Shown: in pieces, positions 2,587 through 54,162 of the stretch
Layout of the letters: each line of letters starts with the position of its first letter
Numbering within the stretch: position 1 is the stretch's first letter
Source: Naegleria gruberi
Lineage: Eukaryota
Assembly (NCBI GenBank): GCA_000004985.1
Contig: GG738911.1
Direction: 5' to 3' (one strand)
Length of the DNA: 64,000 bases
The notes under the pieces: model-generated
What the model was told of the DNA's origin: nothing
Database searches by the model: none
Seen by the model: the letters and a program-made list of their open reading frames with translations, nothing else
Position numbers and translations under genes: made by a program

Positions 2587-2759
2587 GTTAATTTGAAATT
2601 TAAAATATTTGAGTGTATGACAAAACTGGAAATCCATAGTAAATTTCAAAGTGCATCAAATTTTATTGTGTGACAGAACACAGTAGGGTGTTCTATCGAA
2701 TATTTGTAAATAAATTAAGTTTCTTAGGTTTCCATTAGGTGGTTAGAAGAGTAATATCT

Positions 2760-10116: not shown

Positions 10117-10293
10117 ATTATTAGGATTTTATTTCTATTAGAATTAAAATACTAACCAATTGAAGAACAACCACTCTCATCATCGAATTTAACATTTACA
10201 ATTTCAAAATTGATTAATGATTTTTATTAAATTGTGTCACCTCAAATTGCTTTAGTCTTTTTATGTCCTCTGCATCAAAATGAAATGCTTCGT

Positions 10294-23115: not shown

Positions 23116-23208
23116 TGCATATCAAACACTTTTATTTTCACAAACTCTTGCTGCATGTGTTAAAGTTTTGTAAACCAAAAAGTTTTAATTTTTAAAATTA
23201 AAAAAAAA

Positions 23209-27824: not shown

Positions 27825-28602
27825 TTTGACATTGAAACATATATCTACCAACAGTTGTCATTATGAAAAAATAATGTATGTGAATAGAACCAATCAGGCG
27901 AAAAAAATCTTTTGACAAACCATGCAAAAAAAACTGTTCGCATAATTAAGCTCATAATGCTAAAAAATATCTTTGGACATATATATCCTTAGTTATAATC
28001 AATCAACAAGAACTTGGAAAAATATTGACAACAAGTAAGTCCATCCCGACTCGGTTGATTCTTGGAGAATGATTTAAATAGTAGTATTAATAGTAATTTT
28101 TGGAATTTAATTGTTCATCATGATTTGGAAATAATTTTATTATTTGGAAAAATTCAAGTTGGTACCAACCATCATCGGAACAACAACCAACCTGATCATC
28201 ATTGTTATTTACCATCATTATAATATTTGTGGAAATAAATCTGATAATAATAATATTTTAGTATAACATGAATGTTTTGTAAACTTGATAAAATGTTCTT
28301 TTTATAAACGAATAAAGATATTTGAGTAATGTGGAGAAAAACTGTCTTTATTTTGAATCTTGTGAATTTGAATTACCTAAAGATCTCAATAGTGAAAATT
28401 GGTATTTTAAAAGTGAATGGATAATTTTCATCTTTTTCACAATTTGAAAATAATTTCCAAAATTGGAAATTAGACAACTTGGGTGATTGAGTTTCATTTT
28501 CACAAATCATTGAATCTCAGCCATCCTCATGCCGAAACAGTATAAATTGGCTCATCAGACGAAACATTGACTTTCAAACAATCACAAAAAAAACAAAACA
28601 AA

Positions 28603-29733
28603 ATGTATTCGAATATCAAAACTATCCGAAACACCTTGAGCAACTTGTTGCTCCTCACTCTCCTTACATTGACTTTCATCAACTGTTCCTCAATGCAAAC
28701 CAATCTCTTTCCCTCCAATTCTAGAGCAATCAACGTTGCTGGTGGCACATCAGTGTCATCTGCCAATGAATTTCCACATATGGTCAGCATTCAATACTAC
28801 TCGAGCTCATCAGTTGCCACAGGAATCCACTTCTGTGCAGGAACCATCATATCCCCTCTCCACATTGTCACTGCTTCTCACTGTGATATTGGTGTCACTT
28901 TAGATAAATTGAGAATTATTGCTGGGAATTCGAATAATCAATGCACCGCTAGTTCAACATCATGCACGATTCGTACAGTTACCAAATTCACAAAGCATCC
29001 AAATTATGACAGTTCTACCATTAAGAATGATATTGCAATCATTGAATTGGATCAACCAATTCCATTGGACGGAGTTAGAGCAGTTGCCGCCAAAATTGAG
29101 AATTTGACATTGGATCAATTTCTTTCATCTAGTTCTAGCTCAATGGTAAATATTGCTGGTTGGGGAAGAACTACAACTCAATCAAGCGTTCAAGTGATTC
29201 AGAAGGCTATGGTTCCAATTTCGCCAGTTTCAGTTTGTAACGCCAAAAATTTGGGAGTTTCGTCTCCAAATCAAATATGTGCTGGTAATGGAAATGGTAT
29301 TGATACTTGTGGTGGTGATAGTGGTGGTCCACTTTTCAGAGTTATTGCTGCAGGAACTGTCAATAACAATTTACCAATCTTTGTCTTGACAGGTGTCGTT
29401 TCTTATGGACCTCCAGGATGTGGTGGATCAAATGTTGGTGCCTACACAAATGCAACTCAATATATCTCATTTATAAGAGAACAAGTTGGTTCCTCATATA
29501 CAGTTGAAAAGTACGGAGATAGTTCAAAGCCAATTATTACTCCAACTCCTGTGCCATCTCCTTCTCCAGTCGTTCCTGTTCCTTCTAATAATGGTAATAA
29601 TCAATCTTGTAAATGCAAGTGGTATTGTAAGAAGGTTAGACAAATGAGGGAAATGAGATTGAGAGGTGGAATGAATGTTGATGAGAGTCAATTTATGAAA
29701 TGGATAAAGTTAAATCCATTCAATAAAATGTAA
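28603..29733 (+). CDS. secreted trypsin-like (S1 family) serine protease with a Pro/Ser-rich linker and a Cys/Lys-rich C-terminal tail
   Basis: Signal peptide 'MYSNIKTIRNTLSNLLLLTLLTLTFINC'. The catalytic triad motifs are 'TASHC' (His), 'DIAIIEL' (Asp) and 'GDSGGPL' (Ser). The track ORF starts at a TTG at 28567, and the first ATG is at 28603. Confidence 0.8.
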   Translation: MYSNIKTIRNTLSNLLLLTLLTLTFINCSSMQTNLFPSNSRAINVAGGTSVSSANEFPHMVSIQYYSSSSVATGIHFCAGTIISPLHIVTASHCDIGVTLDKLRIIAGNSNNQCTASSTSCTIRTVTKFTKHPNYDSSTIKNDIAIIELDQPIPLDGVRAVAAKIENLTLDQFLSSSSSSMVNIAGWGRTTTQSSVQVIQKAMVPISPVSVCNAKNLGVSSPNQICAGNGNGIDTCGGDSGGPLFRVIAAGTVNNNLPIFVLTGVVSYGPPGCGGSNVGAYTNATQYISFIREQVGSSYTVEKYGDSSKPIITPTPVPSPSPVVPVPSNNGNNQSCKCKWYCKKVRQMREMRLRGGMNVDESQFMKWIKLNPFNKM

Positions 29734-29820: not shown

Positions 29821-29907
29821 TCCGATTATACGGAATCGAACCGCCGACCACAGGATAACAGTTTTTCTTGCTACAGTCCCATGCTCTACCAGCTGAGCTA
29901 TCATCGG
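29821..29907 (-). tRNA. tRNA-Tyr (anticodon GUA) with a 14-nt intron after position 37
   Basis: The reverse complement folds as:
- acceptor CCGATGA
- TA
- D arm GCTC-AGCTGGTA-GAGC
- A
- anticodon stem TGGGA
- loop CU-GUA-G, then intron [CAAGAAAAACTGTT] (29857-29870), then A
- anticodon stem TCCTG
- variable loop TGGTC
- T arm GGCGG-TTCGATT-CCGTA
- acceptor TAATCGG
- discriminator A
There are two G.A mismatches, at 6:67 and 49:65. A T-run (TCTTTTTA) follows the 3' end. Confidence 0.6.
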
Positions 29908-32917: not shown

Positions 32918-33257
32918 TAAACCAGTACTTTACAATTTTATTAAATATATTTAAAGATGATTACAAAAAAAATGCAAACCCAACAAGAAGGAGCCAATAA
33001 TTGGAAACGAATCATCCTGTTGTTAATCTTGCTCGTTCCTGCCCAGCTATTTATTTATTACTATTATTATTATTTCATCGGAAGATGAAGGCTTTAAATT
33101 TTCATCATCATTAAAATCGGCTGATGAAGAAATTAAAACAATAATCAGTGATCAGCATCATCTTAATGTTGTTGATAAGTTAATATTACTTTCCAATTTT
33201 TCTACTTGTTTTAATTCAGCATCAGCATCGGAAGGAAAATTAATTCTACAAAAATTG

Positions 33258-35699
33258 ATGAATGAACGAAAGAAGCCTTCAAATCATCACAATCATCATA
33301 CTTTGGAATCATTGAGGGAATTATTAAAATTATTAATCGAATTTAAATATTATCATCATTACGATCATGATGATGAAAGAGCGAATGATAACAAATTGCT
33401 CAATGAACATTCAAGAATGATGATGGAAAGAATTGAATTCCCTCTCCGAATTTATGTTTATCCACTGAGTGAAAATGGAAAGCAAATGTATGAGAGAACT
33501 ATAGACATGTGTAAGAATCATTCCTTTGATAATGAGGAAATGACCTTCTTTCCACATGCCTATATTGATTGCTATTTAATTGATTTTATCATGTTGAATA
33601 CTTCTAATTACTATGATGGAAATTTGATAAAAAGAGTGAATAATATTGAGGAGGCAAATATTGCATACATTCCAATTCCTCTCGTAATGAATTTCTATGA
33701 TAATATTAAAAAGGAGGGAGAGAAGGATTTTCTAAACTTGACAGAAAAGATTAAATCTGATTTTTACAATGAAATGATTTACAATACTGAAATGGAAGAT
33801 AATTTTGAAAAAGTTCCACATTTTGTAACGTATTCCTTTGTTTCGTATAGACTTTCATTTAGTGGAATTCCAAAACAGGTTAAAATTGTAACGTTGGAAA
33901 ATGTGGCAATTAGTGGTTCACCACAGAATGCTTGGTATGATAATGGATGTCAAGATAGATGCCTCACCATTCCATATGCAACCATTTTTGATTGGCCATC
34001 AGCATATAATGAAAGTTCTAACACTCTCTATGCAGAGGATTATACACACAATTGGAAGAATAGACCCTATCTTCTCTCATTCATTGGTTCATTGAATAGA
34101 ACTGAAATTCTATTCACTCATAGATATCATCTTGTGACCAAGTTGAGCGAATTCAGAGGTAGATATTTTCATACATTCAAGGAATCAATTTCTACGAGTA
34201 GTAATATTGAAATTTATGGAAAATCCAAATTTTGTTTACAACTTCATGGAGATACACCAACTAGAAATGCATTCTATGAATCCTTGCTCATGGGTTGCAT
34301 ACCAGTCATTACTGAGAAGACATTTATTAGTTATCGATCACTTTTTGGATATTTATTACCAGTTGAGGAATTTACAATTGTAATTGATAACAAGTATGCT
34401 GAAGAACATGTTCCTGTAAAGGAAATTATTGAGAGATTGAATCAAATTGATAGGAATGGTGAATATTTGAGAATGTTGAACATTTTCAAATCCATTTCCT
34501 TTTTCCTTCGATACAAACATGCTCAATCATCAAATCTACTTGCTATTCTATCTATCTTGAGTGCACAGATACCACTTTCAATTCCTCCAAGATATAACAA
34601 TCGTCCCAGAGATGAACAACATGACAATTTTAATCCTATTGATATATTTATGGGAAGACCAATTGAAAAAGTTTACAAGTGGATGAATTTATCAATTCCT
34701 AAATTTAACATGACAATGAAAATGGAAAATTGTGGAGAATTTACTTGTAAAATTTACATTCCACAATTCTATCATGAATTAACAATTGATTCCCTATCAA
34801 CACATAATAGCATTGATCATTTACCAACTCTAATGGAATTTGCACTTATTCAACGATTGAAGAATGAAAATATTCTCACCAGCAATACTGAACATGCCAA
34901 TTTGATATTCTATCCATTTAATCTCAATGTGATATTCAATCAACATGTATTGGATCAACAAGTGAAACAAGTTGGAATTCAGAAGAAGGGATTTCTCATT
35001 AGCAACAACACTGGAAATGAACAAATACCAAAAATTATTGAAAATCTAAACAAAATTCAATCCATTTTCAATAATTTCACCATTTATACATTATCACCAC
35101 ATGCAATTGAGCAAAAGAATGTGAAAACTCTACCATTCACAACCATTGAACTTTTTGATTCCAATTTCCATCAAATTTCCACTTCTTTCAATAGAAATTC
35201 TCTACTTTGTCAATTAATTGAAGAAAATTTCAATGGGGAGGAAAATCAAATTGCGGAAATGTTGGAAATTCACTTTGGAAATGATTATCCACATTTATTC
35301 TCTAAAAAGGTCAATTCGATCGAATTACTGAACTGTACCTATGTCATCATGTCAAATGTAAATCCATCAAAATTATTACATCAATCAATTCGACATGGCT
35401 CAATACCCATTTCTTTAAATTCCAATAATCAGGACCTTAATGCATTATTACCACATCAAGTTATTGATCGATCTCAAATAATTCTTGAAATTCCAAAACC
35501 AATTCAAAAACTTTACAAAAATTTGGAATTTTTCTCAAATTGGCTGATTCGATTTTTACAAAATATTTCACATGAAGAAATTCAAGCAAGAAGACAAGCA
35601 ATGACAAAGTTAAAAAGTTATTTTAATTTATCGAATGAAAAACATGGTGGTAAATATGATTTAGCTGATCTTGTCTTGTGTTCCCTTAACTGTCACTAA
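33258..35699 (+). CDS. exostosin-like GT47 glycosyltransferase with two tandem GT47-like domains
   Basis: The first ATG is at 33258 (the track start 33255 is TTG). Domain 1 has 'ANIAYIPIPL' and 'SKFCLQLHGDTPTRNAFYESLLMGCIPVI', matching the exostosin motif S(K/R)FCLxPxGDxxxSxRxF(D/E)xxxxGCIPV. Domain 2 has 'ANLIFYPFNL' and 'CTYVIMSNVNPSKLLHQSIRHGSIPISLN'. No N-terminal TM is seen, so a 5' exon may be missing. Confidence 0.6.
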   Translation: MNERKKPSNHHNHHTLESLRELLKLLIEFKYYHHYDHDDERANDNKLLNEHSRMMMERIEFPLRIYVYPLSENGKQMYERTIDMCKNHSFDNEEMTFFPHAYIDCYLIDFIMLNTSNYYDGNLIKRVNNIEEANIAYIPIPLVMNFYDNIKKEGEKDFLNLTEKIKSDFYNEMIYNTEMEDNFEKVPHFVTYSFVSYRLSFSGIPKQVKIVTLENVAISGSPQNAWYDNGCQDRCLTIPYATIFDWPSAYNESSNTLYAEDYTHNWKNRPYLLSFIGSLNRTEILFTHRYHLVTKLSEFRGRYFHTFKESISTSSNIEIYGKSKFCLQLHGDTPTRNAFYESLLMGCIPVITEKTFISYRSLFGYLLPVEEFTIVIDNKYAEEHVPVKEIIERLNQIDRNGEYLRMLNIFKSISFFLRYKHAQSSNLLAILSILSAQIPLSIPPRYNNRPRDEQHDNFNPIDIFMGRPIEKVYKWMNLSIPKFNMTMKMENCGEFTCKIYIPQFYHELTIDSLSTHNSIDHLPTLMEFALIQRLKNENILTSNTEHANLIFYPFNLNVIFNQHVLDQQVKQVGIQKKGFLISNNTGNEQIPKIIENLNKIQSIFNNFTIYTLSPHAIEQKNVKTLPFTTIELFDSNFHQISTSFNRNSLLCQLIEENFNGEENQIAEMLEIHFGNDYPHLFSKKVNSIELLNCTYVIMSNVNPSKLLHQSIRHGSIPISLNSNNQDLNALLPHQVIDRSQIILEIPKPIQKLYKNLEFFSNWLIRFLQNISHEEIQARRQAMTKLKSYFNLSNEKHGGKYDLADLVLCSLNCH

Positions 35700-35903
35700 T
35701 CAAAAAAATTGTTACTAATGAAATTCAATTTTCAAAATTATTGTAGTCTTCAATTTTATACAACAAACAAACCCTATCCAAAATGAGAGTTTCATCAGAT
35801 CAGGAAAATAAATGTTGATTGGTGGCATGTGACAGGTAACCTTCCAGTTTGATCTCTTTAAAAAACATCAAAAAAAAAATAACTGATCCTATTATTCACC
35901 AAC

Positions 35904-36914
35904 ATGTTAAAACCAACAATTCTCATCGTCATCATCTTGCTTTTTCATCAATTTTTTATTAACTGTCAACAATCATTTGAAATTGCCAAATTTATTTCCG
36001 AACAAAATGAACAATTTAAACAAGAAATTAATCAAGAATTTGAATTTCCAATTCATTCATCACGAAATATACAACAAGAATCATGTGTCCCATTGACAAC
36101 ACCTGTAGAATATTGTTCCGGACTAATTCCAAATAACATTTCGTATATAACTTCAAGATCATTAAACACAGTCGAACCTAGACTAATCTCACAAATTGAC
36201 AATTTTATTACAAAAATGGAAGTTAATTATGGTTCTATTACATCTAATTGTAAAAATTCAGCAATTGATTTATATTGTAGCATGTCATTTAAAAGATGTG
36301 TTCATGACAGGAGTAGAGGATTAGTTGAGCTCTATAAACCATGTCAATATTTATGTCAAGAATTATATTTGAATTGCATTCCTGATAGAAAAGTTGCAAT
36401 TGCTTCATCTAGAAATGATTGTGGTGATGAAAATTATCCGAAAGGTGCTTATTCAGTTCAACCAACTTGTACTGATATTTATTTTGATAGAGATGTCACT
36501 TCTTATTATATTATGAGTTTTACTTTATTAGGTGTTGGATTATTGAGCTCATTGATGTGTGGTGGAAGTTTTTTAATTTGTATTTGTTGTGCCAAGTCAA
36601 TTAAACCATCAAATTCAACCATTGGTGATGCTTATTCACATCAACAAGAATCTGATACTAATTCTAGACAAAGTATTAATAGTGGATTTAGATTTTCAAT
36701 TGATGAAGGAAAACCAATGTTTTCAAATTCACCAATTATCAATTCATCCATTAATTCAACTAATTCAGTTGGTGGTGGTGTTAATACTACTTCTGGTAAT
36801 GCTGCTAATACTACAACTACCACTGCAAGTGGTAATAGTAATGCATTTGGAGGAAATGATAATGATGGATTGACTGTTATTAATATTAGTGGTGGTGATA
36901 ATGATTCAAATTAA
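35904..36914 (+). CDS. secreted/membrane Cys-rich protein: signal peptide, ~10-Cys ectodomain, one TM, and an S/T/N/G-rich tail
   Basis: 336 aa. The signal is 'MLKPTILIVIILLFHQFFINC'. The Cys-rich segment is 'CVPLTTPVEYCSG...CKNSAIDLYCSMSFKRCVHD...CQYLCQELYLNC'. The TM is 'YYIMSFTLLGVGLLSSLMCGGSFLICICC'. A Frizzled-like CRD is possible but not established. Confidence 0.45.
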   Translation: MLKPTILIVIILLFHQFFINCQQSFEIAKFISEQNEQFKQEINQEFEFPIHSSRNIQQESCVPLTTPVEYCSGLIPNNISYITSRSLNTVEPRLISQIDNFITKMEVNYGSITSNCKNSAIDLYCSMSFKRCVHDRSRGLVELYKPCQYLCQELYLNCIPDRKVAIASSRNDCGDENYPKGAYSVQPTCTDIYFDRDVTSYYIMSFTLLGVGLLSSLMCGGSFLICICCAKSIKPSNSTIGDAYSHQQESDTNSRQSINSGFRFSIDEGKPMFSNSPIINSSINSTNSVGGGVNTTSGNAANTTTTTASGNSNAFGGNDNDGLTVINISGGDNDSN

Positions 36915-37226
36915 TCATCATCATCACTCTCATCTCATTGTGTAAATTATAAAGTGTGCATTTTCTTGAACATTCTTACTTGTTTGATTATTGAAGTGTG
37001 CATTGCTACCACTGTGTGTGTGTGAAAAATCGATTGCCTTTAGAGAGATCTGTTCTTCCAGCTGGTACAACACATATCACTTTCTCGCTTTATTTTGCTG
37101 ACTATTTTAGAAATAGGTTGGGAAATGATGTAACTCTCTCAATGCGAGCGGCAAAAGAATTTTATTGATACTAATCGAGAGAGGTAATATAATTCGATTT
37201 CAAAAAAAAACGAATCATTCAGAGAG

Positions 37227-38312
37227 ATGCATCAACAACATAACAGCATCCAAGAGAAGGACAAGTTAACAAGCGATCTTTGTAGGTCTTCCTTGTTGCG
37301 AATTATTCCCAAAGAATGTTTTCAACCGAGTGCTTTGATTTACTATTCTGATTTCACACTCTCACTCGTTTTGTATCATTTGTTGTTTTATGCATGTTAT
37401 AAATTGATGAAGGAGGGTTATATTTATCAGGCAGTGGTATTGGCATTCATTACATCCTTCATATTTTACAGGGTCATGTTGTTCATTCATGAATCTGTTC
37501 ATCAATCTCAAAATTTGCCCAATTTTGTAAAGTATTACAACCTTGTGAATGGATTCCCTAACAAGGTTCCTCTCTATTGCTACAAACCACATCTGACACA
37601 TCATGATCCAAAAGTCTATGGTCAAGCTAACGATCCAGAATATCAGAGCATCAGTAGTGGTTCAATATGGTTTCATTACCTATTGGTTCCAGTGATTTTT
37701 CAATTTCCTGTTGCAGTATTTACATGTTTACGTTTTAATCTAGTTCCATTCCTTCTACCATTCATTGGAAGTAAGGGAAGAGAGTTCATTTGGAGATATG
37801 CATCCACATTGGCCATGAATCCATTCTTTGACAGAGGTCTCCCAACTGAACAAGATAAGAAGGAGTGGTATGTGCAAGACTTTGGATGTGCATGTGCAAC
37901 AACTTGTCAATTTATTGCTATTTACTTTGGATTTATTGAAGATGGTTTGAGTTTTATGAGAACAACTCTTATCATTGTTTACTTTTTGCTTGTTGTGAAC
38001 ATGTACAGAGCAATGGCTGCTCACAGATACTTTGCTGAACCACATCAACCACCACTCTCTAGAAAACAAATGATTTTGGATTCGGTCAACTATGCAAGTG
38101 ATTCTTGGATTTGTTTCTTTTGGTTTCCTGTTGGAACACTTTATCATGGCTTACATCATGTATTTCCCACAATTCCATATCATCACCTTGCAAGAGTTCA
38201 CTCAATTTTGGTTGAACATTTGAGAAGGAATGATCCTTCCCATCCCTATTTATGTACTGTGATTGAAAGTTATTGGGAAAATGTGAGAGCTCAAATCAAC
38301 TTGAAATTGTAA
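37227..38312 (+). CDS. membrane fatty-acid desaturase-family protein (three His boxes)
   Basis: 361 aa with 'HESVHQS' (HxxxH), 'HLTHHD' (HxxHH) and 'HGLHHVFPTIPYHH' (HxxHH), separated by hydrophobic segments. Confidence 0.7.
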   Translation: MHQQHNSIQEKDKLTSDLCRSSLLRIIPKECFQPSALIYYSDFTLSLVLYHLLFYACYKLMKEGYIYQAVVLAFITSFIFYRVMLFIHESVHQSQNLPNFVKYYNLVNGFPNKVPLYCYKPHLTHHDPKVYGQANDPEYQSISSGSIWFHYLLVPVIFQFPVAVFTCLRFNLVPFLLPFIGSKGREFIWRYASTLAMNPFFDRGLPTEQDKKEWYVQDFGCACATTCQFIAIYFGFIEDGLSFMRTTLIIVYFLLVVNMYRAMAAHRYFAEPHQPPLSRKQMILDSVNYASDSWICFFWFPVGTLYHGLHHVFPTIPYHHLARVHSILVEHLRRNDPSHPYLCTVIESYWENVRAQINLKL

Positions 38313-38405
38313 ACATAGTTTCATAGTATTAAAAGTATCATTATTACTTGATTGAAATTTAATCTTACAGAGGAAAGGTGAGAGTTAATTAGACTAGAAA
38401 GCAAT

Positions 38406-38921
38406 TTATTTCTTGGCAATCTTTTTAGTCTTACATTTCAATTTCTTCAGTGAAGCCTTCAACTTGACAATTTTGGCTCTGAGCTTCTTAATATTCTTCA
38501 AAGCATTCTTTTTAGCAGCAGCATTACTAGTGGTGGCTGTCTTCTTGAGTTTCTTCACAGCAAGAATAGTCTTTCTGAGTGATCTTCTGAGTTTGGCACA
38601 TTTCGAAGCCTTCTTTGACTTTTTAGCCTTCTTCTTACTTGTCTTCTTGGTAGAAGAATTCTTCTTCTTTGGAGTTGTTTTCTTCTTTGATGATTTCTTA
38701 GCAGAAGAATTGGTCTTCTTACCAGATTTCTTACCAGATTTCTTGGTTGTGCTACTTGTTGATTTCTTGCTGCTTGATTTCTTACTAGAAGAAGATTTTC
38801 TGGCTGTTGCTGTTGTTTGGACAGATTGAGTTTCAGCTTGTTGTGCAGCTGCGAAAGAAACGCACAATAACAATGATAATAATAACAATGAAAGAATTAA
38901 CCACTTGCCACTACTATTCAT
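38406..38921 (-). CDS. secreted polycationic (Lys/Ser-rich) protein, paralog 1
   Basis: Start at the ATG at 38919-38921. The signal peptide is 'MNSSGKWLILSLLLLSLLLCVSFAAAQQAETQ'. The mature part is about 45% Lys with 3 Cys, for example 'KKASKCAKLRRSLRKTILAVKKLKK...LKKLKCKTKKIAKK'. It sits in tandem with 39169-39987. Confidence 0.55.
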   Translation of the reverse strand: MNSSGKWLILSLLLLSLLLCVSFAAAQQAETQSVQTTATARKSSSSKKSSSKKSTSSTTKKSGKKSGKKTNSSAKKSSKKKTTPKKKNSSTKKTSKKKAKKSKKASKCAKLRRSLRKTILAVKKLKKTATTSNAAAKKNALKNIKKLRAKIVKLKASLKKLKCKTKKIAKK

Positions 38922-39168
38922 TTTGTTGTTGTATTTTTTTGATGGATGTTTGGACACGGGAAGGAAGAAGCTGTCACTGATGGAACAAATGATTGGACAA
39001 ATGAACTTGCAAGAGTTCCTTTAAAGTGGTGTGAGTGCAATTTTGGTAATTTCTCAAAGTGAGATAATTTGCAAGATTTTTTAAACAAATCAATTTGATC
39101 AACAAAATTAATTAATGGAAAATATTGAGACAATTAAATTGATTTAATGTTTTTCAATTATGTACATT

Positions 39169-39987
39169 TTAATTGGCCTTCTTGGCAACCTTCTTAGCAG
39201 CAACCTTCTTGGCAGACTTTTTAGCTTTCTTGGCCTTCTTGAGCTTCTTCAAAGCATTCTTGCAAGCGTTTCTCTTGGTCAAGTTCTTGGCCTTCTTGGC
39301 ACATCTTCTCAACTTTCTGAGTTTTCTGAGTTTCTTCAATGCTTTCTTACAGGCATTTCTCTTCTTCAAGGATTTAGCCTTCTTTGCGCATCTCTTCAAC
39401 TTTCTGAGCTTTCTAATTCTCTTCAATGCCTTCTTACAAGCCTTCTTCTTCTTCAAATTCTTTGATTTCTTGGCACATCTTCTCAATTTTCTGAGCTTTC
39501 TGAGTTTCTTCAATGCCTTCTTGCAAGCCTTTCTCTTCTTCAAATTCTTTGATTTCTTGGCACATCTTCTCAATTTTCTGAGTTTTCTGACTCTTTTCAA
39601 AGCCCTCTTGCATGCCTTTCTCTTCTTCAAAGATTTAGCCTTCTTGGCACATCTCTTCAACTTTCTAACTCTCTTAGCCTTCTTTGATTTCTTGGCAGAC
39701 TTCTTTGACTTTTTACATTTCTTCTTTAATTTGAGTTTCAATTTGCGAACCTTTGATCTGAGTTTCTTGACTCTCTTGGCAAGTTTAGCACATTTCTTTG
39801 ATTTCTTAGCCTTCTTCCAAGTCTTCTTTGGCTTTGTAGCCTTCTTGTTGGTAGTTGAAGTCTTCTTTACAATTGATGATGATTTGACGGCTTGAGTTTC
39901 GGCTTGTTCAGCAGATGCGAAAGAAACGCAACATGCCAACAATGCGAGCAACAACAAGGAGAGAATAACCCACTTGCCACTATTCAT
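39169..39987 (-). CDS. secreted polycationic repeat protein, paralog 2, with about 4.5 repeats of a 29-aa unit 'CAKKSKNLKKRKACKKALKKLRKLRKLRR'
   Basis: Start at the ATG at 39985-39987. The signal peptide 'MNSGKWVILSLLLLALLACCVSFASAEQAETQ' is homologous to paralog 1. The mature protein is more than 50% K+R with two Cys per repeat. The coding repeats have an 87-bp period. Confidence 0.6.
   Translation of the reverse strand: MNSGKWVILSLLLLALLACCVSFASAEQAETQAVKSSSIVKKTSTTNKKATKPKKTWKKAKKSKKCAKLAKRVKKLRSKVRKLKLKLKKKCKKSKKSAKKSKKAKRVRKLKRCAKKAKSLKKRKACKRALKRVRKLRKLRRCAKKSKNLKKRKACKKALKKLRKLRKLRRCAKKSKNLKKKKACKKALKRIRKLRKLKRCAKKAKSLKKRNACKKALKKLRKLRKLRRCAKKAKNLTKRNACKNALKKLKKAKKAKKSAKKVAAKKVAKKAN
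39258..39651 (-). repeat. 87-bp coding tandem repeat (~4.5 units) inside the polycationic gene
   Basis: Units recur at an 87-bp period, for example 'ttcttcaatgctttcttacaggcatttct' at ~39328 and near-copies at ~39415 and ~39502. The array boundaries are approximate. Confidence 0.6.
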
Positions 39988-40646
39988 TTTGTATGTTTTT
40001 TTTTGGATGATGAATGAGAACTTTCTAGTAGAGAGAAATAGCACTCGTGTCATGCAGATTCGTTAATTGTACTACGATTTTTGAAGTGAAATGACAAGTT
40101 GACTCGATTGATTTCCCGCCAAACGAACTACTCTTTTACAACGTTCGTATATGGAAGGCAGCTTCAATTTGGTATCATCGTTGGATAATACAAAATTATC
40201 AATGAATGTTAATTTTTATTATCATGGTTACAATTACAATGTATGAAATATTAAAGAGTTTTACAGTTTGTTCAGTCAATAAGTCCAATTACTCCATTCA
40301 CTACAAGCGACAATTCTCATCTTTGCATCTCTTATTAAACTGTATTGTAAAGTATTAACAATATTAAGCCACATTTATAAATCCCTTATTTGGTCAATAT
40401 TCCGAATCATCAAAATAAAACCCTCAACAAATGCACATTAAACAATCGTGAGAGTGCGCACTCAAGCCACTGAGCTGAAATTAACCAACACTTCTCAAGC
40501 GCAACCTTTATTTTCACATTTGTGCGTACTCACAAATCCTATTCATCTCATCTATTAAGCAAGGCTGTAAAATGCCATGAACTTTCAGTAGACAAAAACT
40601 CTCAAACAAATATTGAAAAAAACAAGCCGATTTGAAAACTAGCAAA

Positions 40647-42272
40647 ATGAATACTACTATCGAAACATCATTTATTAATGTTGCTGCTGCTTCTTCTTCT
40701 TCAACACCTTCATCATCTTGGAAGGAAATCTTGATGAATGCTTATAAGAATGGACAAACTAATGTTACCGATCAAATAAGTTATGCTCTTAATTGCTTAA
40801 TTAAGCAACTTCATAAGATTTTAACCGTCACTCATCAAAAGAAAGGTCCTTTATTTAATAAGATGTTGGTTTCTTCTTTCACTGCACAAAATTTGATTGA
40901 TTGCATTTGTAAAGTCTTGTTGGAAACTTCCACAAGTGACAAGTTGGCAGATTACATTGGTCAATTGATGGTTCAATTGAATATGATTGAATTTGATTGT
41001 CAAAATAAGAATTCCACTAGATTATCTGATGATAGAAAGAGATTGGTTCGTTTCTTACATCCATACATGCCAAGATTGGTTATCATTGGAGGTGGACATT
41101 CTGGAGTATTGACAGCTTGTCAGTTAAATGATTATTTCTCTATTGTTTTGATTGACAAGAATCCACATTGCACTTTAAAGCCGGCATTTCCAGTAATTCT
41201 AGAGAAAGTTGATCATGTTAACAAGATTTCTATCAATTACTCTGAAATTCTCCCTTCAAATGTCACTTTCATTCATGGGTTGACCAAAATAGTGAGACAG
41301 GATGGTGTCTTTATTGAAATTGCTGGAAAAGAGCCACAAATCAAGCACATGTTGACAAATGAATATTCAGATTCCAACACAGATGTAAGAAATTGTAAAT
41401 TCCTTTCCTTTGATTATTTGGTCATCGCCACAGGTTGCAATGGTTGGAAAAATGTTCCACAAATGGAAAATCCTCAAAAGGAAAACAAGATTTTATATGT
41501 TGATGGTTATAACATGGACATGGTCGAGTTGTCAGTCACTGCCATTAATCAATCCAATCATGATATTGTTGTAATTGGAGGTGGAAGTGTCGGATGTGAA
41601 TATTTTGGATCACTAGCTCAAACTTTCCCAAATAGGAATTGTTATTTAATTCAAAGATCTGACATGTTAATGAAACCATCCAAAGATGCTCACAAGGCAG
41701 CAACTGATACATTTGCCAAGATGAAGAATGCAAATGTCAAATTTAATTGTCAAGTTGATCGTCAAGAAGATTCGAATATTCTTGTTGTAAAGTCATTGGA
41801 AAGTGGAGAAGAAACAAGAATCAAGTGTTGTGTTTGCTTCCTTGCCTCAGGTATCTCACCAAACACTAAAATGATGAATGAATACTTTGGAGAAAGCATG
41901 GACGAAAATAATTATCTGAAAGTGAATCCTTCCTTCCAATTATGGAAATCTAATTCTGAGTATTTTAACAATATTTTCGTTTTGGGAGATGCCAATAATG
42001 CTGATACTGAAAAACTAATTCAAAATGCAGATATTCATGCTGAGAAATTTGTTGAAATTGCCAAATCTATTCTAAAGGTTTCGTCTCCCAACTCAAATGA
42101 AGGTATTTTAGCAACGTATGATAATGCTCCTCGTGTGATGGCTGTTTCACTTGGTCCTAAAACTGGTTTCTTAATGAAAGATAACAAGATCATGTTCAAA
42201 TCTGGCGTTGTAAACAAATTGAAATCTGCCATTCAAAATTCAACTCTAAAAACCTACAAAAAATTTCAATAA
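40647..42272 (+). CDS. FAD/NAD(P)-binding pyridine-nucleotide-disulfide oxidoreductase-family protein (AIF/FSP1-like) with an N-terminal extra domain
   Basis: The first ATG is at 40647 (the track start is TTG). Two Rossmann dinucleotide motifs are 'LVIIGGGHSGVLTACQL' and 'VVIGGGSVGCEYFGSLA'. A C-terminal 'VLGDANNAD' resembles the FAD-binding GD motif. Confidence 0.55.
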   Translation: MNTTIETSFINVAAASSSSTPSSSWKEILMNAYKNGQTNVTDQISYALNCLIKQLHKILTVTHQKKGPLFNKMLVSSFTAQNLIDCICKVLLETSTSDKLADYIGQLMVQLNMIEFDCQNKNSTRLSDDRKRLVRFLHPYMPRLVIIGGGHSGVLTACQLNDYFSIVLIDKNPHCTLKPAFPVILEKVDHVNKISINYSEILPSNVTFIHGLTKIVRQDGVFIEIAGKEPQIKHMLTNEYSDSNTDVRNCKFLSFDYLVIATGCNGWKNVPQMENPQKENKILYVDGYNMDMVELSVTAINQSNHDIVVIGGGSVGCEYFGSLAQTFPNRNCYLIQRSDMLMKPSKDAHKAATDTFAKMKNANVKFNCQVDRQEDSNILVVKSLESGEETRIKCCVCFLASGISPNTKMMNEYFGESMDENNYLKVNPSFQLWKSNSEYFNNIFVLGDANNADTEKLIQNADIHAEKFVEIAKSILKVSSPNSNEGILATYDNAPRVMAVSLGPKTGFLMKDNKIMFKSGVVNKLKSAIQNSTLKTYKKFQ

Positions 42273-42356: not shown

Positions 42357-43589
42357 TTAGTTTAGTTTATTGATTTGAGACATGAATTCATGATCTTTCT
42401 TCATTGATTTGGTTAAAAATTGAATAATCTTTGAATTTTTCCTTGCCAATCTCAACACAAATTCCTTGTCATCCCTTAATGACTTGTCAATATGTTGAAA
42501 AACATTGACATTTTGACTGACAGCTTCAAATACAATCTCCTTATCCTTCTTAAACTCTGGATTAATATATTTGATTATAAATCCATCATATTTAGCAGTT
42601 AGTAATATCAAATCTCTATCATCCTTAATAAATCTCGCTATATAAAATGTACTCGTGGAAGATCTTTCAGGAATTTCCAATATTTCAACAAGAAATTCCC
42701 TATCCTTAATTAATTCTTCAAGTGCATATTCAAGTGCAAATCCCTTACTTTTCCTGACAACCTCCAAAACAAACTTCTTATCTAGTTTCAATTCTCTGCT
42801 AGCATATTGAAAGGCACTTCCTTGTTCATTTCTCATTATGGCCTTCATTATAATTTCTCTGTCGTTTTTTATTTCCTCGCCTGCACTTCCTATAAATGAC
42901 CAACAATGTGAAATTGCCAACTCTACAATTTCTCTATCATTCCTTAATGATTCATGAACGAATTTAAGAGCATGACCACTTGATTTGGCTGCTGCCATTA
43001 CTATTTCTCTATCACTCTTAAATCTATCATTTGCATATCCTAAACTTCCACCATCTTGTTTGACAGCTGCCATTACTATTTCTCTGTCATCTTTCAATCT
43101 ATCAGAAGCAATACTAAGCATAGAACCAACTCCCTTAACAGATCTCAACACAACTTCTCTATCATTTCTAATAACTTCATTAGAATTATTATAAATAAAT
43201 CCAGGACTAATTCCAACTATTTGAAATATAAAATTTGAATCAAATTTCAATTCCTTTCCCAATTGGGCACCAATTTCGAATGCATTTTGGCGGTAATATG
43301 CTAATGAATATTTAAATCCCAATGAACTGATGGAAACATTGCTGAATGGATTATGACATGAATTGTGTTCATTCATAAATTTGAGAATTGTAAACCAATC
43401 TCGTCTTGTATCGAGAAATTTAATGGTTTCCTTTAAATGTTCGGAGCCTCCGGAGATGATCGGATCTATGATTGTTTGGTATTTTAAATAATGAGGAATA
43501 TCTCTGATTTTAGTGGAGAGTAAATTGGATTGAAATGATTGATCTAAGAGAAGTAATACTTGTAAAGGTGGTGTTTGTTGTGCTTGCAT
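42357..43589 (-). CDS. DUF4116-like ~25-aa tandem-repeat protein; copy 2, the inverted near-identical duplicate of 1287-2489
   Basis: The track ORF extends to a TTG at 43673, but the first in-frame ATG, at 43587-43589, gives 'MQAQQTPPLQVLLLLDQSFQSNLL...', collinear with copy 1. Sampled DNA stretches show a few mismatches per 60 nt against the reverse complement of copy 1. Confidence 0.6.
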   Translation of the reverse strand: MQAQQTPPLQVLLLLDQSFQSNLLSTKIRDIPHYLKYQTIIDPIISGGSEHLKETIKFLDTRRDWFTILKFMNEHNSCHNPFSNVSISSLGFKYSLAYYRQNAFEIGAQLGKELKFDSNFIFQIVGISPGFIYNNSNEVIRNDREVVLRSVKGVGSMLSIASDRLKDDREIVMAAVKQDGGSLGYANDRFKSDREIVMAAAKSSGHALKFVHESLRNDREIVELAISHCWSFIGSAGEEIKNDREIIMKAIMRNEQGSAFQYASRELKLDKKFVLEVVRKSKGFALEYALEELIKDREFLVEILEIPERSSTSTFYIARFIKDDRDLILLTAKYDGFIIKYINPEFKKDKEIVFEAVSQNVNVFQHIDKSLRDDKEFVLRLARKNSKIIQFLTKSMKKDHEFMSQINKLN

Positions 43590-43779
43590 TTTTTGAATTT
43601 TCTTTTGTTGACCAATGAACTTGGAACTTGTAAACAATTCTAATTGCAATTTGAAAAGTGCATCCAATAACAATCAATAATCTTTATTGTAAAGTTAGTA
43701 TTAAAGATAATTAAATACACACATAAAATAAATACAAAATGCAGATGAACTTGACACTCCAGAAGCCTTCAAAAAAAAA

Positions 43780-45741
43780 ATGTTACCCACCTACTCATCG
43801 GAACGTCCCAATCAGCATTTACGTGGACGAGGAAATAATGTAACATCTCCATCACCTTCATCTTCGTCATCTTCGTCATCATCACCATTGGAAAATAATT
43901 TATCTTCTGCATCATCATCAAATTTTGGCGCCAGAAAGTCCAAATGTTCAGGCAAGAAAATAGGCTGTTTAATAATAGGCTTGTTATTGCTCATCATTGC
44001 CTTGTATTGGTTGTTTAGTGTTGTGAGTGAGAATGTAATTATTGTTACGGATGATGATGCTGATAATGCTGTTGCAACAAATTTTAGGAATATTGCAGAA
44101 TTGGATGGAAATGAAAATACTAATATTAAATCAGCATCGGAGAAGGATACTAAAACAAGCCTTAAAAAAGATAAGAAAGAGGAAGGTGATGAAAAGAAGG
44201 AGGAAATTGTACCACCACCTCCAATTGTTAAACGTAAGAAGAACAAACAAGAGAAACAACAAGATTTAATATTTGAAGAAATTGCTAAATTATTAACTAA
44301 TCCAGATCAAACAAGCGAAGGATCCTATGGATGGTATAGAAAACAATTAGATACTAATAATAGATTAGGTAATACTTTATTTGATGATCCTATAATGACT
44401 AAATTAGGATTTCAAGATACTCTTACCACTAGTGAATTATTATTTTACTATTTTAGAACATTTAATACGACACAGGAATGTAGACAACAACATACATGTA
44501 AAATTTATGCAGATAGAACTGCAGGTGAATTTTTGGAAGAGGGAACTCAATTGGATGCTGTTGTGCAACATTGTCAATATAAGGAACCTTACTTTTTAAA
44601 TTCACATGAACAAGAATCCAAGAATTTGAATGTTTTTCATTCACTCATTACAAAATCAGATGATAATTTAAAGAATATTGACAAATTAGAAGTATCTAAT
44701 GTTTTAGCACATTCTAATCATATGGATTATTTATATGGAGAACAAATGTGGAGAGGAATGAGAAGATTATCAATTATCATGTGTAGTGAAGCTCGTGTTC
44801 ATGATCTTGTTGGTCCAATAACACAAAAGAAGAATGATTACAAATCAATGCAAAGATTTTCAGATTCTACAGCTGACATTTCAATTTGTTTCCTTTCAAC
44901 ATGTTCTGTTTGGGTTAATTATCATTATTGGCAATTATCTTTATCCAAATCAAATGAATTTGGAACTAAACCATTCAAAAACAATAAGGGAATTTGTGCT
45001 TTTATTTCAAATTGTGATCAAGCTGGTTGCACTGATTTAAAACAAAGATTTGAACTCTTGAATACACTCTCAAAATACATTCCAGTGAGACAATATGGTA
45101 AATGTGGAAAGAATGCACAAGAAGGACCAGGTGGTAAAACATTTGAAATTGAAAATAATTGTCGATTCTATTATGCAGCTGAAAATTCAATTGCCAAAGA
45201 TTATGTTACTGAGAAATTCTTTGAAGGAGTAAGAGCTCTTCAAAATGGTGCCAGAGTAATTACATTATATAGAGGTGCTCCAAATTTGAGACAAGATTGG
45301 GGATTTCCAAAGTCTCTCTACTTGGATCATAATGATTTTGAATCTGTGGATGCATTGGGTCAATACATGAAGAAATTGAATGATGATGACAATGCCTTTG
45401 AACGATGGTTCAACAAGATGACAATGCAAGAAAGAAAGAAGGTTGATAAGGTTTTAGATGGTTTCGAACATAGACTTGGAACTAATATTCCATGCAGAAT
45501 TTGTGCCATTGTTGGTGAAATGAAATTAGCACGTTATTTATTATTTAAAATTGGATTGAAAACAACAACAGCAAAGGTCAATTGGTATGAATGGCAACAA
45601 TTCAAAGCAGATAAGTTTGAAAATCTCTCCAAGGACAGACTTGCAATATTGGATCATATTTATGTGATGGCCTTTAATATTTTCCAAACTGAAAATAATA
45701 AGGCAAATAGATTTAATCTTGCTTGGGATTTTAATAAGTAA
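43780..45741 (+). CDS. GT10 alpha-1,3-fucosyltransferase-like type II membrane protein (paralog B)
   Basis: 653 aa with an aaaaaaaaaATG start. The cytoplasmic Ser-rich tail is followed by TM 'CLIIGLLLLIIALYWLFSVV' and an acidic, Lys-rich stem. The catalytic region carries 'FYYAAENSIAKDYVTEKFFEG'. It is transcribed divergently from 42357-43589. Confidence 0.7.
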   Translation: MLPTYSSERPNQHLRGRGNNVTSPSPSSSSSSSSSPLENNLSSASSSNFGARKSKCSGKKIGCLIIGLLLLIIALYWLFSVVSENVIIVTDDDADNAVATNFRNIAELDGNENTNIKSASEKDTKTSLKKDKKEEGDEKKEEIVPPPPIVKRKKNKQEKQQDLIFEEIAKLLTNPDQTSEGSYGWYRKQLDTNNRLGNTLFDDPIMTKLGFQDTLTTSELLFYYFRTFNTTQECRQQHTCKIYADRTAGEFLEEGTQLDAVVQHCQYKEPYFLNSHEQESKNLNVFHSLITKSDDNLKNIDKLEVSNVLAHSNHMDYLYGEQMWRGMRRLSIIMCSEARVHDLVGPITQKKNDYKSMQRFSDSTADISICFLSTCSVWVNYHYWQLSLSKSNEFGTKPFKNNKGICAFISNCDQAGCTDLKQRFELLNTLSKYIPVRQYGKCGKNAQEGPGGKTFEIENNCRFYYAAENSIAKDYVTEKFFEGVRALQNGARVITLYRGAPNLRQDWGFPKSLYLDHNDFESVDALGQYMKKLNDDDNAFERWFNKMTMQERKKVDKVLDGFEHRLGTNIPCRICAIVGEMKLARYLLFKIGLKTTTAKVNWYEWQQFKADKFENLSKDRLAILDHIYVMAFNIFQTENNKANRFNLAWDFNK

Positions 45742-49246: not shown

Positions 49247-50695
49247 ATGAAATTAACTCATTCTCAACAACACTGTAACAAACCACTCACTTCAATATTG
49301 CTATTTTCATGTATCTTAATAATAGGCTATTCTACACTACTATTTATTAAACATCATCACGGAAATGGACAGAATGAGAAGAAACTAGTAGGCTTGGAAA
49401 ATGTTCATGATGAAGTTGTGTGGACGGGAAGAGATGAAGACTTTGAAAAAAGCCTAACAAAATCAGCCTACAAGAAAATGTTTACTTTACAAGATTTATT
49501 ATCACTTTCTAAAATTTACATTTATGAAGATTTTCCAAATTTTAATATAAAATTATTTGAAAATGATGGAATTCAAATTTCTAAAAATGAAATTTTTAAA
49601 TATAAAAATTTGGATTCAATTTCACAAAATATTGTTGCAAATATTAAAAATTTAATTATTGGAAAGGAAATTAAATTAAAAATAACTCCATTTGGAAATA
49701 ATATAAATAGTAAATTTTATTCAACAAGTGAACAAGTACTTGAACCCTATTTACATTATAGATTATTAACACATCCAAATAGAGTAGCAAATATACAAGA
49801 TGCAGATTTAGCATTTATTCCATTTTATTCACATTTATTAAAATTTGCTACTAAAAATGGAAATATAATTCCATTAAATACAATTATTCAATATACAAAT
49901 TCACTTTTACCTAAAACTACAAACACAAATATTCCACATTTAATTGCTTATTCTGATTTGGGATATAATACAAAAGAAGCCTTGAGAGAAATGTTTAAAT
50001 TTGCACCAAATAATTTTTATTTTGTTTGTTATGAAGAAGATCAATCTAGTAGTGGATATTACCTTCCTAAAAAGGCACCTTCAAGAGTAATTACAGTTCC
50101 ATATATGTCAATTATTCATAAATCGAAATTTGAAAATTTTTATGAAAATTTCAAAATAATGAAAAATAGAACTTTTTTTACATGTCATGTCGGTAATTTA
50201 AATAGATGGCCAATTCAATACATGTCAAAATATTTATCAACACCATTTTATACATCACTTTCCAATGAACAAGCTTCCAATTTAGGAAATTTAATTGAAT
50301 TTTATTCTAATTGTAAATTCTCAATTCATATTTCAAGTTTAGATGGAGAGATGAGGATTTCCCGCCATTTTTATACATCACTTACAACTGGTACCATTCC
50401 TATTTTATTTAATTCTAATGAAATGAGTTATTCAAGCCTTTTTAGGGGTGCACTCGATTTGGAAATGATGGCTATTATTATACCAAATTCAATTCATCAA
50501 ATTAGAGATGAAAAGGAACAATCATGGGCAATTATTAATTATTTAAAAAGTATTCCATTAAATGTTTTTGAAAAAAAGAGAAGATTTATTTATGATCATT
50601 TACAATATTTACAATATTCAATGGAAAATGATCAACAAGATGCAATTTCATTAATTATTGGAAGTGTTGTTAAATTAAATTCAATATTAATTTGA
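49247..50695 (+). CDS. exostosin-like GT47 glycosyltransferase (single domain, type II membrane)
   Basis: 482 aa. The N-terminal TM is 'LTSILLFSCILIIGYSTLLFI'. Motifs are 'ADLAFIPFYSHLL' and 'CKFSIHISSLDGEMRISRHFYTSLTTGTIPILFN'. Confidence 0.6.
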   Translation: MKLTHSQQHCNKPLTSILLFSCILIIGYSTLLFIKHHHGNGQNEKKLVGLENVHDEVVWTGRDEDFEKSLTKSAYKKMFTLQDLLSLSKIYIYEDFPNFNIKLFENDGIQISKNEIFKYKNLDSISQNIVANIKNLIIGKEIKLKITPFGNNINSKFYSTSEQVLEPYLHYRLLTHPNRVANIQDADLAFIPFYSHLLKFATKNGNIIPLNTIIQYTNSLLPKTTNTNIPHLIAYSDLGYNTKEALREMFKFAPNNFYFVCYEEDQSSSGYYLPKKAPSRVITVPYMSIIHKSKFENFYENFKIMKNRTFFTCHVGNLNRWPIQYMSKYLSTPFYTSLSNEQASNLGNLIEFYSNCKFSIHISSLDGEMRISRHFYTSLTTGTIPILFNSNEMSYSSLFRGALDLEMMAIIIPNSIHQIRDEKEQSWAIINYLKSIPLNVFEKKRRFIYDHLQYLQYSMENDQQDAISLIIGSVVKLNSILI

Positions 50696-53835: not shown

Positions 53836-53996
53836 TTTAAAATATTAAAATATTTAATGAAGGCTTTTAGTATCTTTTGTTCACCTTTTTAAAGATAAAT
53901 TTCTTAATTTGTCCGTTCTCATTATTATCCTTTTACTGCTGTGATGTATTAGTTGAGTTGTAGTAACAGTCACACACTACTGATGGATTGAAAAAA

Positions 53997-54162
53997 ATGT
54001 TACCAACATTTAATTCCTCAAATCTTCACACTAGAAAGAGAGGAGATTTATCATCTTCATCGTCATCGTCATCTTCATCAAATCAACAACAACAACAACA
54101 TTTTAAATCAAACAAGTCTAATTGTCTGAGTAAAATAGTTTATTTAATAATAGGCTTGTTAT
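53997..54162 (+). CDS. 5' fragment of a third alpha-1,3-fucosyltransferase-like gene (cytoplasmic tail and start of the TM), truncated by the assembly gap
   Basis: 'MLPTFNSSNLHTRKRGDLSSSSSSSSSS...KSNCLSKIVYLIIGLL' parallels the N-termini of paralogs A ('MLPTYASERPNQDLHTRRN...') and B ('MLPTYSSERPNQHLRGRGN...SSSSSS...KIGCLIIGLLLLIIALY'). It has an aaaaaaATG context. The sequence after the gap is non-coding, so the gene is either incomplete in the assembly or a relic. Confidence 0.4.

Follow-up and report, generated by a model that had tools for sequence, protein, structure and literature searches.

We analyzed a 64,000-nucleotide (nt) stretch of contig GG738911.1 from the soil amoeba Naegleria gruberi, referred to here as the window, in which two intronless open reading frames (ORFs), g1 and g2, lie in tandem on the minus strand. 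From their sequences, they are very probably a tandemly duplicated pair of genuine, lineage-restricted genes. The original prediction, made from the DNA letters alone, had described a tandem pair of paralogous genes with a shared, canonical-looking signal peptide, an 87-bp coding repeat, polycationic mature parts, and paired cysteines. Inspection of the leaders bears out the first of these points, and the repeat finder TRF and translation bear out the others; the observation is real and, save for small corrections given below, correctly described. The host had been taken for a bacterivorous amoeba, which is right: four ORFs flanking g1 and g2 are exact matches to the N. gruberi proteins EFC38092 to EFC38095.

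Organization of g1 and g2

Both ORFs start with an ATG preceded by the same A-rich context, ACAAAATG, and end with TAA. Downstream of the predicted signal peptide, g1 encodes QQAETQ, an S/T/K-rich disordered spacer of ∼60 to 70 amino acids (aa), and a K-rich segment with two cysteines (C108 and C163) that is predicted to form a helical hairpin. The corresponding layout in g2 is EQAETQ, a short S/T/K spacer, two degenerate units, five clean 29-aa K/R-rich units, and a K/A-rich tail. When the aligned upstream and downstream flanks were searched for shared regulatory motifs, only the ∼25 to 30 nt before the ATG proved similar, with weak similarity beyond position −30. The pair had been placed at 38406-40053. 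The left limit stands; position 40053 is an upstream in-frame ATG of a longer ORF. Because the paralogs become similar only from ∼25 nt ahead of the ATG at 39987 and g1 lacks a matching upstream ATG, 39987 is the likely start of g2.

TRF reports a tandem repeat in g2 with a period of 87, 5.3 copies, 81% matches, and a score of 530 (39204-39666), and a second repeat search found the same 87-nt spacing; a repeat with this score cannot arise by chance. The clean units start at 39651, 39564, 39477, 39390, and 39303, are 67 to 90% identical to one another (the longest exact run at an 87-nt shift is 49 nt), and follow the pattern C-A-K-K-[SA]-K-[NS]-L-K-K-[RK]-[KN]-A-C-K-[KRN]-A-L-K-[KR]-[LVI]-[RK]-K-[LA]-[RK]-K-[LA]-[RK]-[RK]. 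The repeat had been counted at ∼4.5 copies, a figure that gives way to five clean units plus two degenerate ones; in the region of the latter, a two-unit tblastn query matches with 62% identity (39732-39565).

As predicted, each clean unit holds two cysteines. C1 and C14 are invariant in all five, and their codons vary synonymously between TGT and TGC. The cysteines of g2 fall at aa 66, 91, 113, 126, 142, 155, 171, 184, 200, 213, 229, and 242, with alternating intervals of 12 and 15 residues in the clean units (aa 113 to 242) and of 24 and 21 in the degenerate ones; the number in the mature part is even in both proteins (12 in g2 and 2 in g1). Every g2 unit ends with RR or KR directly before the next first Cys. 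Dibasic sites, which had been noted as numerous, are indeed present; they recur five or six times within every unit and mark no unit boundary, and, being spread in this way, they define no processing sites. Lysine and arginine make up 52% of mature g2 and 39% of mature g1, so that the earlier figure of ∼50% for both holds for g2 only. The mature parts, 145 to 246 residues long, carry net charges of +127 (g2) and +55 (g1), and the g1 spacer contains N-x-S/T sequons at aa 71 and 88.

The leaders show the features of signal peptides. By inspection, the n, h, and c regions of g2 are MNSGK, WVILSLLLLALLA, and CCVSFASA (followed by EQ), and those of g1 are MNSSGK, WLILSLLLLSLLL, and CVSFAAA (followed by QQ); small residues occupy positions −3 and −1 of both predicted cleavage sites. 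The leader is the only strongly hydrophobic segment in either protein, with maximum KD19 hydropathy values of 2.69 at aa 8 to 26 in g1 and 2.65 at aa 7 to 25 in g2. Over the first ∼100 nt of the coding sequence (CDS), the genes are 76% identical (z = 13.5 versus shuffles), with eight synonymous and six nonsynonymous codon differences, whereas in the flanks on the 5′ and 3′ sides the similarity has fallen almost to the random level (z = 1.6 to 2.7). The only acidic residues of the whole proteins are Glu directly after the predicted cleavage site, one in g1 and two in g2. The leader had been written with the pattern A[AS][AE]QAETQ, which is only approximate, and its homology between the two genes is confirmed. 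Each product thus appears to carry a cleavable 26-aa signal peptide.

Table 1. Coordinates of g1 and g2, their parts, and adjacent features (positions in the window)
Feature	Position	Strand	Remarks
g1, complete intronless CDS	38406..38921	-	171 aa + stop; ORF and translation
g1, signal peptide coding region	38844..38921	-	aa 1-26, MNSSGKWLILSLLLLSLLLCVSFAAA, followed by QQAETQ; predicted cleavage after A-A-A; sequence inspection
g1, short 5′ leader	38922..38951	-	Similar to that of g2 (39988-40017); 81% over 26 nt
g2, complete intronless CDS	39169..39987	-	272 aa + stop; ORF and translation
g2, signal peptide coding region	39910..39987	-	aa 1-26, MNSGKWVILSLLLLALLACCVSFASA, followed by EQAETQ; predicted cleavage after A-S-A; sequence inspection
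g2, two degenerate units	39652..39822	-	aa 56-112, Cys at aa 66 and 91; translation in 29-aa register
g2, five in-frame 87-bp/29-aa units	39217..39651	-	aa 113-257; TRF + translation
F/L-rich open frame antisense to g1	38413-38829	+	138 codons; no ATG
F/L-rich open frame antisense to g2	39173-39895	+	240 codons; no ATG
Fatty-acid desaturase	37227-38312	+	Immediate neighbor of the g1/g2 pair
Pyridine-nucleotide-disulphide oxidoreductase	40647-42272	+	Immediate neighbor of the g1/g2 pair

Coding evidence and searches for relatives

Variation among the five units falls mainly on third codon positions (5, 11, and 23 variable columns at positions 1, 2, and 3), and the pooled ratio of nonsynonymous to synonymous differences (pN/pS) in the sense frame is 0.20. 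The antisense frames share third codon positions with the sense frames and therefore mimic purifying selection. Coding on the minus strand is fixed by other evidence, since the plus-strand ORFs have no ATG and end short of the best-conserved region, which consists of the first ∼100 nt of CDS on the minus strand. On the same grounds, the lack of an ATG and the stop short of the conserved leader, we rejected the antisense F/L-rich ORFs as real genes; a phmmer search of the g2 antisense ORF against 5.8 billion proteins gave no match. Open antisense frames of AAR-rich genes can thus mislead automated gene callers as well as coding tests based on dN/dS.

Codon usage points in the same direction. 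Lysine codons number 52 in g1 and 102 in g2, many of them adjacent, yet neither gene contains a run of six or more A's. Shuffling each gene's own AAA and AAG codons among its Lys positions rarely reproduces this absence (P = 0.018 for g1 and 0.005 for g2), and under the codon usage of neighboring genes (64% AAA) none of 5,000 simulations did. In most organisms, ribosomes stall and shift frame on poly(A) runs within ORFs (PMC7295572), and the avoidance of such runs makes sense only for a sequence that is translated. AAG accounts for 67 to 75% of Lys codons in g1 and g2, versus 36% in neighboring genes; AGA makes up 93 to 100% of its set, and TTG and CTC are preferred for Leu. This codon choice is compatible with strong expression, the yardstick being the neighboring genes rather than a calibration on highly expressed Naegleria genes.

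An ortholog of g1 was reached through the neighboring desaturase. Positions 1 to 3320 of ENA metagenomic contig L001 (ERZ929261, run ERR1078381, project PRJEB11402) correspond to 35691-39020 of the window with 98.1% identity; the alignment has 35 mismatches as well as 10 gaps, the latter including a net deletion of 12 nt close to the 5′ end of the desaturase CDS. The contig carries the whole of g1 (98% identical) and ends before g2. Seven of the 10 substitutions in g1 are at codon position 3, and the two indels, both of 3 nt, lie in low-complexity runs. Judged by its sequence, L001 comes from another N. gruberi-like strain, one present in an environmental sample. We are highly confident that g1 and g2 are real protein-coding genes.

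The searches found no relatives of either product. Exact look-up of g1 and g2, with either start, in a collection of 15 billion sequences returned nothing, and phmmer against 5.8 billion proteins gave no match, not even to the proteins themselves; in a local control, self-matches scored 431 bits for g2 and 277 bits for g1 despite the compositional bias. A full HMMER search of g2 against 1.84 billion cluster representatives yielded no relative and only two marginal, unrelated repeat proteins. Pfam had nothing for g2 and, for g1, only a subthreshold match to Mucin (PF01456; 18 bits, E = 0.0029, cutoff 34.7) that reflects the compositional likeness of the S/T/K spacer alone; a sequence search of the PDB matched neither protein. 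No related locus turned up in JGI metagenome contigs, which were probed with degenerate peptide patterns and a leader DNA pattern, or in IMG/VR viral contigs. The claim that no characterized family has this unit thus holds across Pfam, the PDB, and both protein sets, and we call g1 and g2 unannotated in the sense that they are absent from the protein collections searched. In the literature searched, we found no account of such proteins from Naegleria; one 2026 preprint deals with the action on N. gruberi of cationic peptides that are exogenous, not endogenous. Protists commonly have low-complexity orphan genes. On sequence grounds, the products would be secreted, cationic, Cys-stabilized helical repeat proteins without detectable relatives.

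A proposed polyanion-binding function and its alternatives

The AF2 model of g2, built from the single sequence, has a mean pLDDT of 82 and exceeds 90 over the repeats. Predicted helices span aa 58 to 100, 102 to 116, 120 to 145, 149 to 174, 178 to 203, 207 to 232, and 236 to 271, so that each clean unit consists of a 26-residue helix and a 3-residue break at [SA]-K-[NS]. C1 and C14 flank each break, and this C-x12-C bracket around every turn joins successive helices in the model. For g1, AF2 predicts helices at aa 89 to 129 and 134 to 160 that form a hairpin (pLDDT, >90). The S/T/K-rich segments are unstructured in both models (aa 28 to 88 in g1, with pLDDT mostly 44 to 63, and aa 35 to 57 in g2). 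From this geometry we infer one disulfide per corner (113-126, 142-155, 171-184, 200-213, and 229-242), with 66-91 closing a degenerate N-terminal hairpin; such a pairing would use all 12 cysteines of mature g2 and both of mature g1.

On balance, we incline to the reading that the products of this tandem duplication are intact, disulfide-stapled polycations of the secretory pathway that bind polyanions outside the cytosol, especially the envelopes of prey bacteria. Each product would enter the endoplasmic reticulum (ER) by its cleavable 26-residue signal peptide, leaving QAETQ as the new N terminus, a conserved neutral to acidic patch that would keep the charge balance of a hugely cationic translocating chain. 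The patch may supply the charge difference that orients the signal with its N terminus cytosolic and its C terminus lumenal and may thereby let a +127 chain start translocation. It would be followed by the disordered, perhaps glycosylated, S/T/K-rich spacer and then by the working part, a polycationic α-helical domain built as one helical hairpin in g1 and as a zigzag of 26-residue helices in g2, in which the Cys pair at each turn would form a disulfide staple in the oxidizing secretory pathway. The intact proteins (+55 and +127) would act outside the cytosol, either secreted or in the lumina of phagosomes or granules, and attach to polyanionic surfaces through multivalent electrostatic contacts. 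Prey-bacterial envelopes are the most plausible target; their lipopolysaccharide (LPS) or teichoic acids would be bound so that the cells are coated, aggregated, or permeabilized. Other candidate targets are acidic glycans, nucleic acids, and polyphosphate.

The physical properties of the helices are consistent with this function. Each 26-aa helix of g2 carries a charge of +15 to +16, with ∼60% K/R and a mean Eisenberg hydrophobicity of −0.77 to −0.90, and its hydrophobic moment of 0.35 to 0.39 is reached by 11 to 23% of shuffles of the same residues. The reference antimicrobial peptides (AMPs) magainin, cecropin, melittin, and LL-37 have 17 to 30% K/R and mean hydrophobicities of −0.3 to +0.2. 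Every g2 unit contains LRKLRK, identical to apoE residues 141 to 146, a heparin- and receptor-binding stretch; a tandem dimer of apoE residues 141 to 149 is antibacterial and antiviral (PMC2855520), and it is common for heparin-binding segments to bind LPS as well and to kill Gram-negative bacteria (PMC12223310). The likeness to apoE is a chemical analogy, not homology.

Several points weigh against this reading. Its target is a guess from physical chemistry, and the gene neighbors in the window, annotated with Pfam, give no clue to it. The antisense frame that shares third positions gives a pN/pS of 0.24, so the test cannot separate the strands and was for that reason not used alone to fix the strand. 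The measure of constraint comes solely from the paralogs, the internal repeats, and one allele with 2% divergence; the ortholog comes from one near-identical strain only, and neither product occurs in the protein collections, which include assemblies of public sequencing runs. AF2 confidence carries limited weight for idealized helical repeats modeled from a single sequence, the Cys-Cys geometry is inferred rather than measured, and a chain of 50% K/R may be disordered until bound.

The main alternative to bacterial-envelope binding is a structural role, although we regard it as improbable. Here the products would be secreted adhesive or matrix components (a substrate glue or a cross-linker of the cyst wall or glycocalyx) that stick, much like poly-lysine, to acidic polysaccharides or to negatively charged surfaces of mineral or glass, with no killing of bacteria. 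The same physical features that suggest polyanion binding would serve such a protein equally, and the S/T-rich spacer, with its sequons in g1 and the subthreshold mucin-like Pfam match, suggests a glycosylated stalk. Nothing specific points to this role, however: Pfam finds no carbohydrate-binding domain, and the literature searches found no such Naegleria wall protein.

The function first proposed for the pair, a precursor of cationic amphipathic AMPs, fares poorly, and we likewise consider it an unlikely explanation. In this scheme, g2 would be cut after the unit-terminal RR/KR to release about five peptides of 29 residues; in each, a C1-C14 disulfide would close an N-terminal loop, to be followed by a cationic helical tail, and the peptides would kill bacteria by disrupting membranes. 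Several features speak for it: a signal peptide followed by tandem Cys-containing helical modules is the architecture of type-2 α-hairpinin precursors (PMC7191063), each unit ends in RR or KR right before the first Cys, the host is a bacterivore, and antibacterial activity is known from very cationic peptides, the apoE(141-149) dimer among them. Against it, known helical AMPs come nowhere near a mean hydrophobicity of −0.8 or a K/R content of 60%, and the moment is not above that of shuffles; of the description "amphipathic-helix-prone," the AF2 model supports the helix and the shuffles do not support the amphipathicity. No acidic or neutral spacers separate the units, and with five or six dibasic sites per unit, a dibasic-specific convertase would shred a unit rather than release it. 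Furthermore, AF2 predicts one continuous helical zigzag, and g1 has no repeat cassette yet shares the leader and the helical K-rich domain. The hydrophilicity, the contiguous units, the scattered dibasic sites, and the lack of a cassette in g1 therefore weaken the polyprotein scheme and favor an intact multivalent polycation. A secreted polyanion-binding protein had been offered as the second choice, and the charge and hydrophobicity values fit it better than they fit an AMP precursor.

Alternatively, the leader could be an uncleaved anchor, with the K/R domain in the cytosol or nucleus binding nucleic acids or acidic lipids, which we judge quite unlikely. The hydrophobic stretch is indeed long and Leu rich (up to ∼18 to 21 residues when the c region is counted; KD19, 2.65 to 2.69), the overall charge on its C-terminal side is positive, g2 ends with -KKAN, which formally fits the KKXX ER-retrieval motif, and K-rich proteins are usually nucleic acid binders. 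However, K5/K6 precedes the hydrophobic core and the sole acidic residues (two, or one in g1) follow it, a charge difference that favors a cytosolic N terminus and a lumenal C terminus. The small −3/−1 residues (A-S-A and A-A-A) fit signal peptidase, and the conserved, evenly spaced, even-numbered cysteines argue for an oxidizing compartment. Moreover, Pfam detects neither H15 nor another nucleic acid-binding domain, and the end of g1 is not KKXX.

Very unlikely, finally, is the possibility that g1 and g2 are not genes at all and are instead purine-rich minisatellite or low-complexity DNA (the product is in no protein collection searched, there are no homologs, and AAR-rich DNA is open in the sense and one antisense frame by composition), given the third-position bias and the pN/pS of 0.20, Cys residues that stay invariant while their codons vary synonymously, two independent frame-preserving indels in the L001 strain, a leader conserved with all its signal-peptide features between decayed flanks, the avoidance of A-runs, a codon choice unlike that of the neighbors, and ORFs that both have ATG in the same A-rich context and a TAA stop.

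Returning to the favored polyanion binders, if g1 and g2 are expressed, they would join the saposin-like pore formers of amoebae as a second type of secreted effector, one with a very different chemistry, and would provide a natural disulfide-stapled helical polycation with a 29-residue unit small enough for synthesis. A broader and more doubtful possibility is that they exemplify an unrecognized class of secreted "protein poly-lysines," super-cationic disulfide-locked zigzags (to +127) that a bacterivorous amoeba would use as multivalent binders of envelopes and other polyanions, as aggregators, and as permeabilizers, and that would have escaped notice because gene predictors skip them and trypsin proteomics destroys them. 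Tryptic proteomics would be blind to g1 and g2 because almost every tryptic fragment is 1 to 4 residues long. Lysine-rich low-complexity secreted proteins can be missing from protist gene sets, and similar genes may hide in other genomes. The acidic patch after the signal peptide offers a testable idea on how a +127 chain is translocated into the ER. In view of the +127 charge, the strictly periodic cysteines, and the complete lack of relatives, the pair merits a modest experimental follow-up.

Genomic context and comparison with known systems

The window has a G+C content of ∼33% and is densely packed with long, mostly intronless ORFs. In two places (21259-25068 and 42357-45741), a gene with DUF4116 repeats lies directly beside a GT10 fucosyltransferase gene: 21259-23115 (+) with 23209-25068 (+), and 42357-43673 (−) with 43780-45741 (+). 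These two pairs may reflect a segmental duplication of the gene pair; a third DUF4116 gene lies at 1287-2489. Other secretory and glycosylation genes, at 33255-35699, 49247-50695, 14481-16670, 28567-29733, and 35904-36914, comprise two GT47 exostosin-like genes and genes for a Wntless-like membrane protein, a trypsin-like protease, and an Fz-domain protein that has a signal peptide; their presence is not taken to imply a functional connection with g1 and g2. ARAGORN and Rfam agree on a tRNA-Trp(CCA) at 2513-2587 (−). An 87-nt tRNA at 29821-29907 (−), called by Rfam with 40.2 bits and unreported by ARAGORN, may contain an intron or have a long variable arm. Three stretches are AT rich (52001-54000, 58001-60000, and 10001-12000, with G+C contents of 0.18, 0.23, and 0.26 versus ∼0.33 elsewhere). 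The stretch at 10 to 12 kb also has a strong GC skew of +0.28, and the ORFs 10294-11766 and 52195-53835, which lie in AT-rich stretches, have no Pfam match.

Several protein families were set aside. A linker histone H1 or other nuclear K-rich protein was rejected: Pfam detects no H15 domain, the products have a predicted N-terminal signal peptide, and the PDB holds no match. The original prediction had named histone H1-like homology as one of the findings that would speak against it, and the missing H15 globular domain together with the signal peptide shows that g1 and g2 are not linker histones. CHCH proteins consist of two helices with C-x3-C or C-x9-C motifs and two disulfides and are made in the cytosol and imported into the mitochondrial intermembrane space; a twin Cx3C/Cx9C protein was rejected on the in-helix spacing of C-x15-C and the predicted ER signal peptide. 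Assignment of g1 to the Mucin-like glycoproteins (PF01456) was rejected on the Pfam gathering threshold, below which its match falls.

Among amoebal effectors, naegleriapores and amoebapores invite comparison: they come from the same genus, are presumed to kill ingested bacteria, enter the secretory pathway, contain disulfides, and are made in Naegleria from multiunit precursors. Saposin-like proteins are compact five-helix bundles of modest charge, and the SapB domain has six conserved cysteines in three disulfides. In g1 and g2, the Cys framework and composition are different, Pfam finds no SapB or saposin match, and the fold searches returned no saposin match; since the SapB domain is absent, the products are not saposin-like. 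Exported proteins of Plasmodium share with g1 and g2 entry into the secretory pathway and expanded K-rich tandem repeats, which act as electrostatic targeting and binding modules; unlike those of g2, the Plasmodium repeats are short and Cys free, act in the cytoplasm of the host erythrocyte, and have no sequence relation to it (PMC5207086).

Cecropins, magainins, LL-37, and polycationic granule or protamine-like proteins resemble g1 and g2 in secretory origin, helical propensity, positive charge, and a plausible envelope target. Compared with linear cationic helical peptides, however, g1 and g2 have a 3- to 4-fold-higher charge density, a hydrophobicity of ∼−0.8 versus ∼0, and no significant amphipathicity; they lack an anionic propiece, measure 145 to 246 residues, and have predicted disulfides. 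Linear amphipathic AMPs combine a moderate charge, ∼40 to 50% hydrophobic residues, and a high moment, a combination that the g2 helices do not have.

The nearest architecture is that of the type-2 α-hairpinin precursors of plants, in which a signal peptide precedes 5 to 12 helix-loop-helix modules (PMC7191063). Like the precursors of Sm-AMP-X and Tk-AMP-X, g2 combines a signal peptide with a tandem cassette of short, basic helical modules that appear to be Cys stabilized, and AF2 predicts helix-turn-helix corners. The α-hairpinin motif is C1-x3-C2-x(4-20)-C3-x3-C4 (PMC11591084), whereas g2 has C-x12-C-x15, no C-x3-C anywhere, and two cysteines per unit instead of four, so that each corner could hold at most one predicted disulfide in place of the two of the hairpin fold. 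K/R reaches 60% in g2, linker or processing segments are absent, Heterolobosea are remote from plants, and there is no sequence similarity. By sequence, g1 and g2 are not members of this family, because the C-x3-C...C-x3-C motif is absent.

The closest chemical counterpart is the apoE segment at residues 141 to 150 (LRKLRKRLLR) and Cardin-Weintraub-type helices in general, which share with every g2 unit the identical LRKLRK and a basic helix with a leucine stripe. For peptides of this type, sulfated glycans and LPS are ligands, and dimers built in tandem act against bacteria and viruses (PMC2855520, PMC12223310). The likeness is one of low complexity: apoE is a lipid-binding four-helix bundle with a single site, while g2 carries the motif five times, with predicted Cys staples and no lipid-binding domain. 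Outside every family tested, the products of g1 and g2 would, by analogy, resemble a repeated, stapled version of a heparin- and LPS-binding cationic helix.

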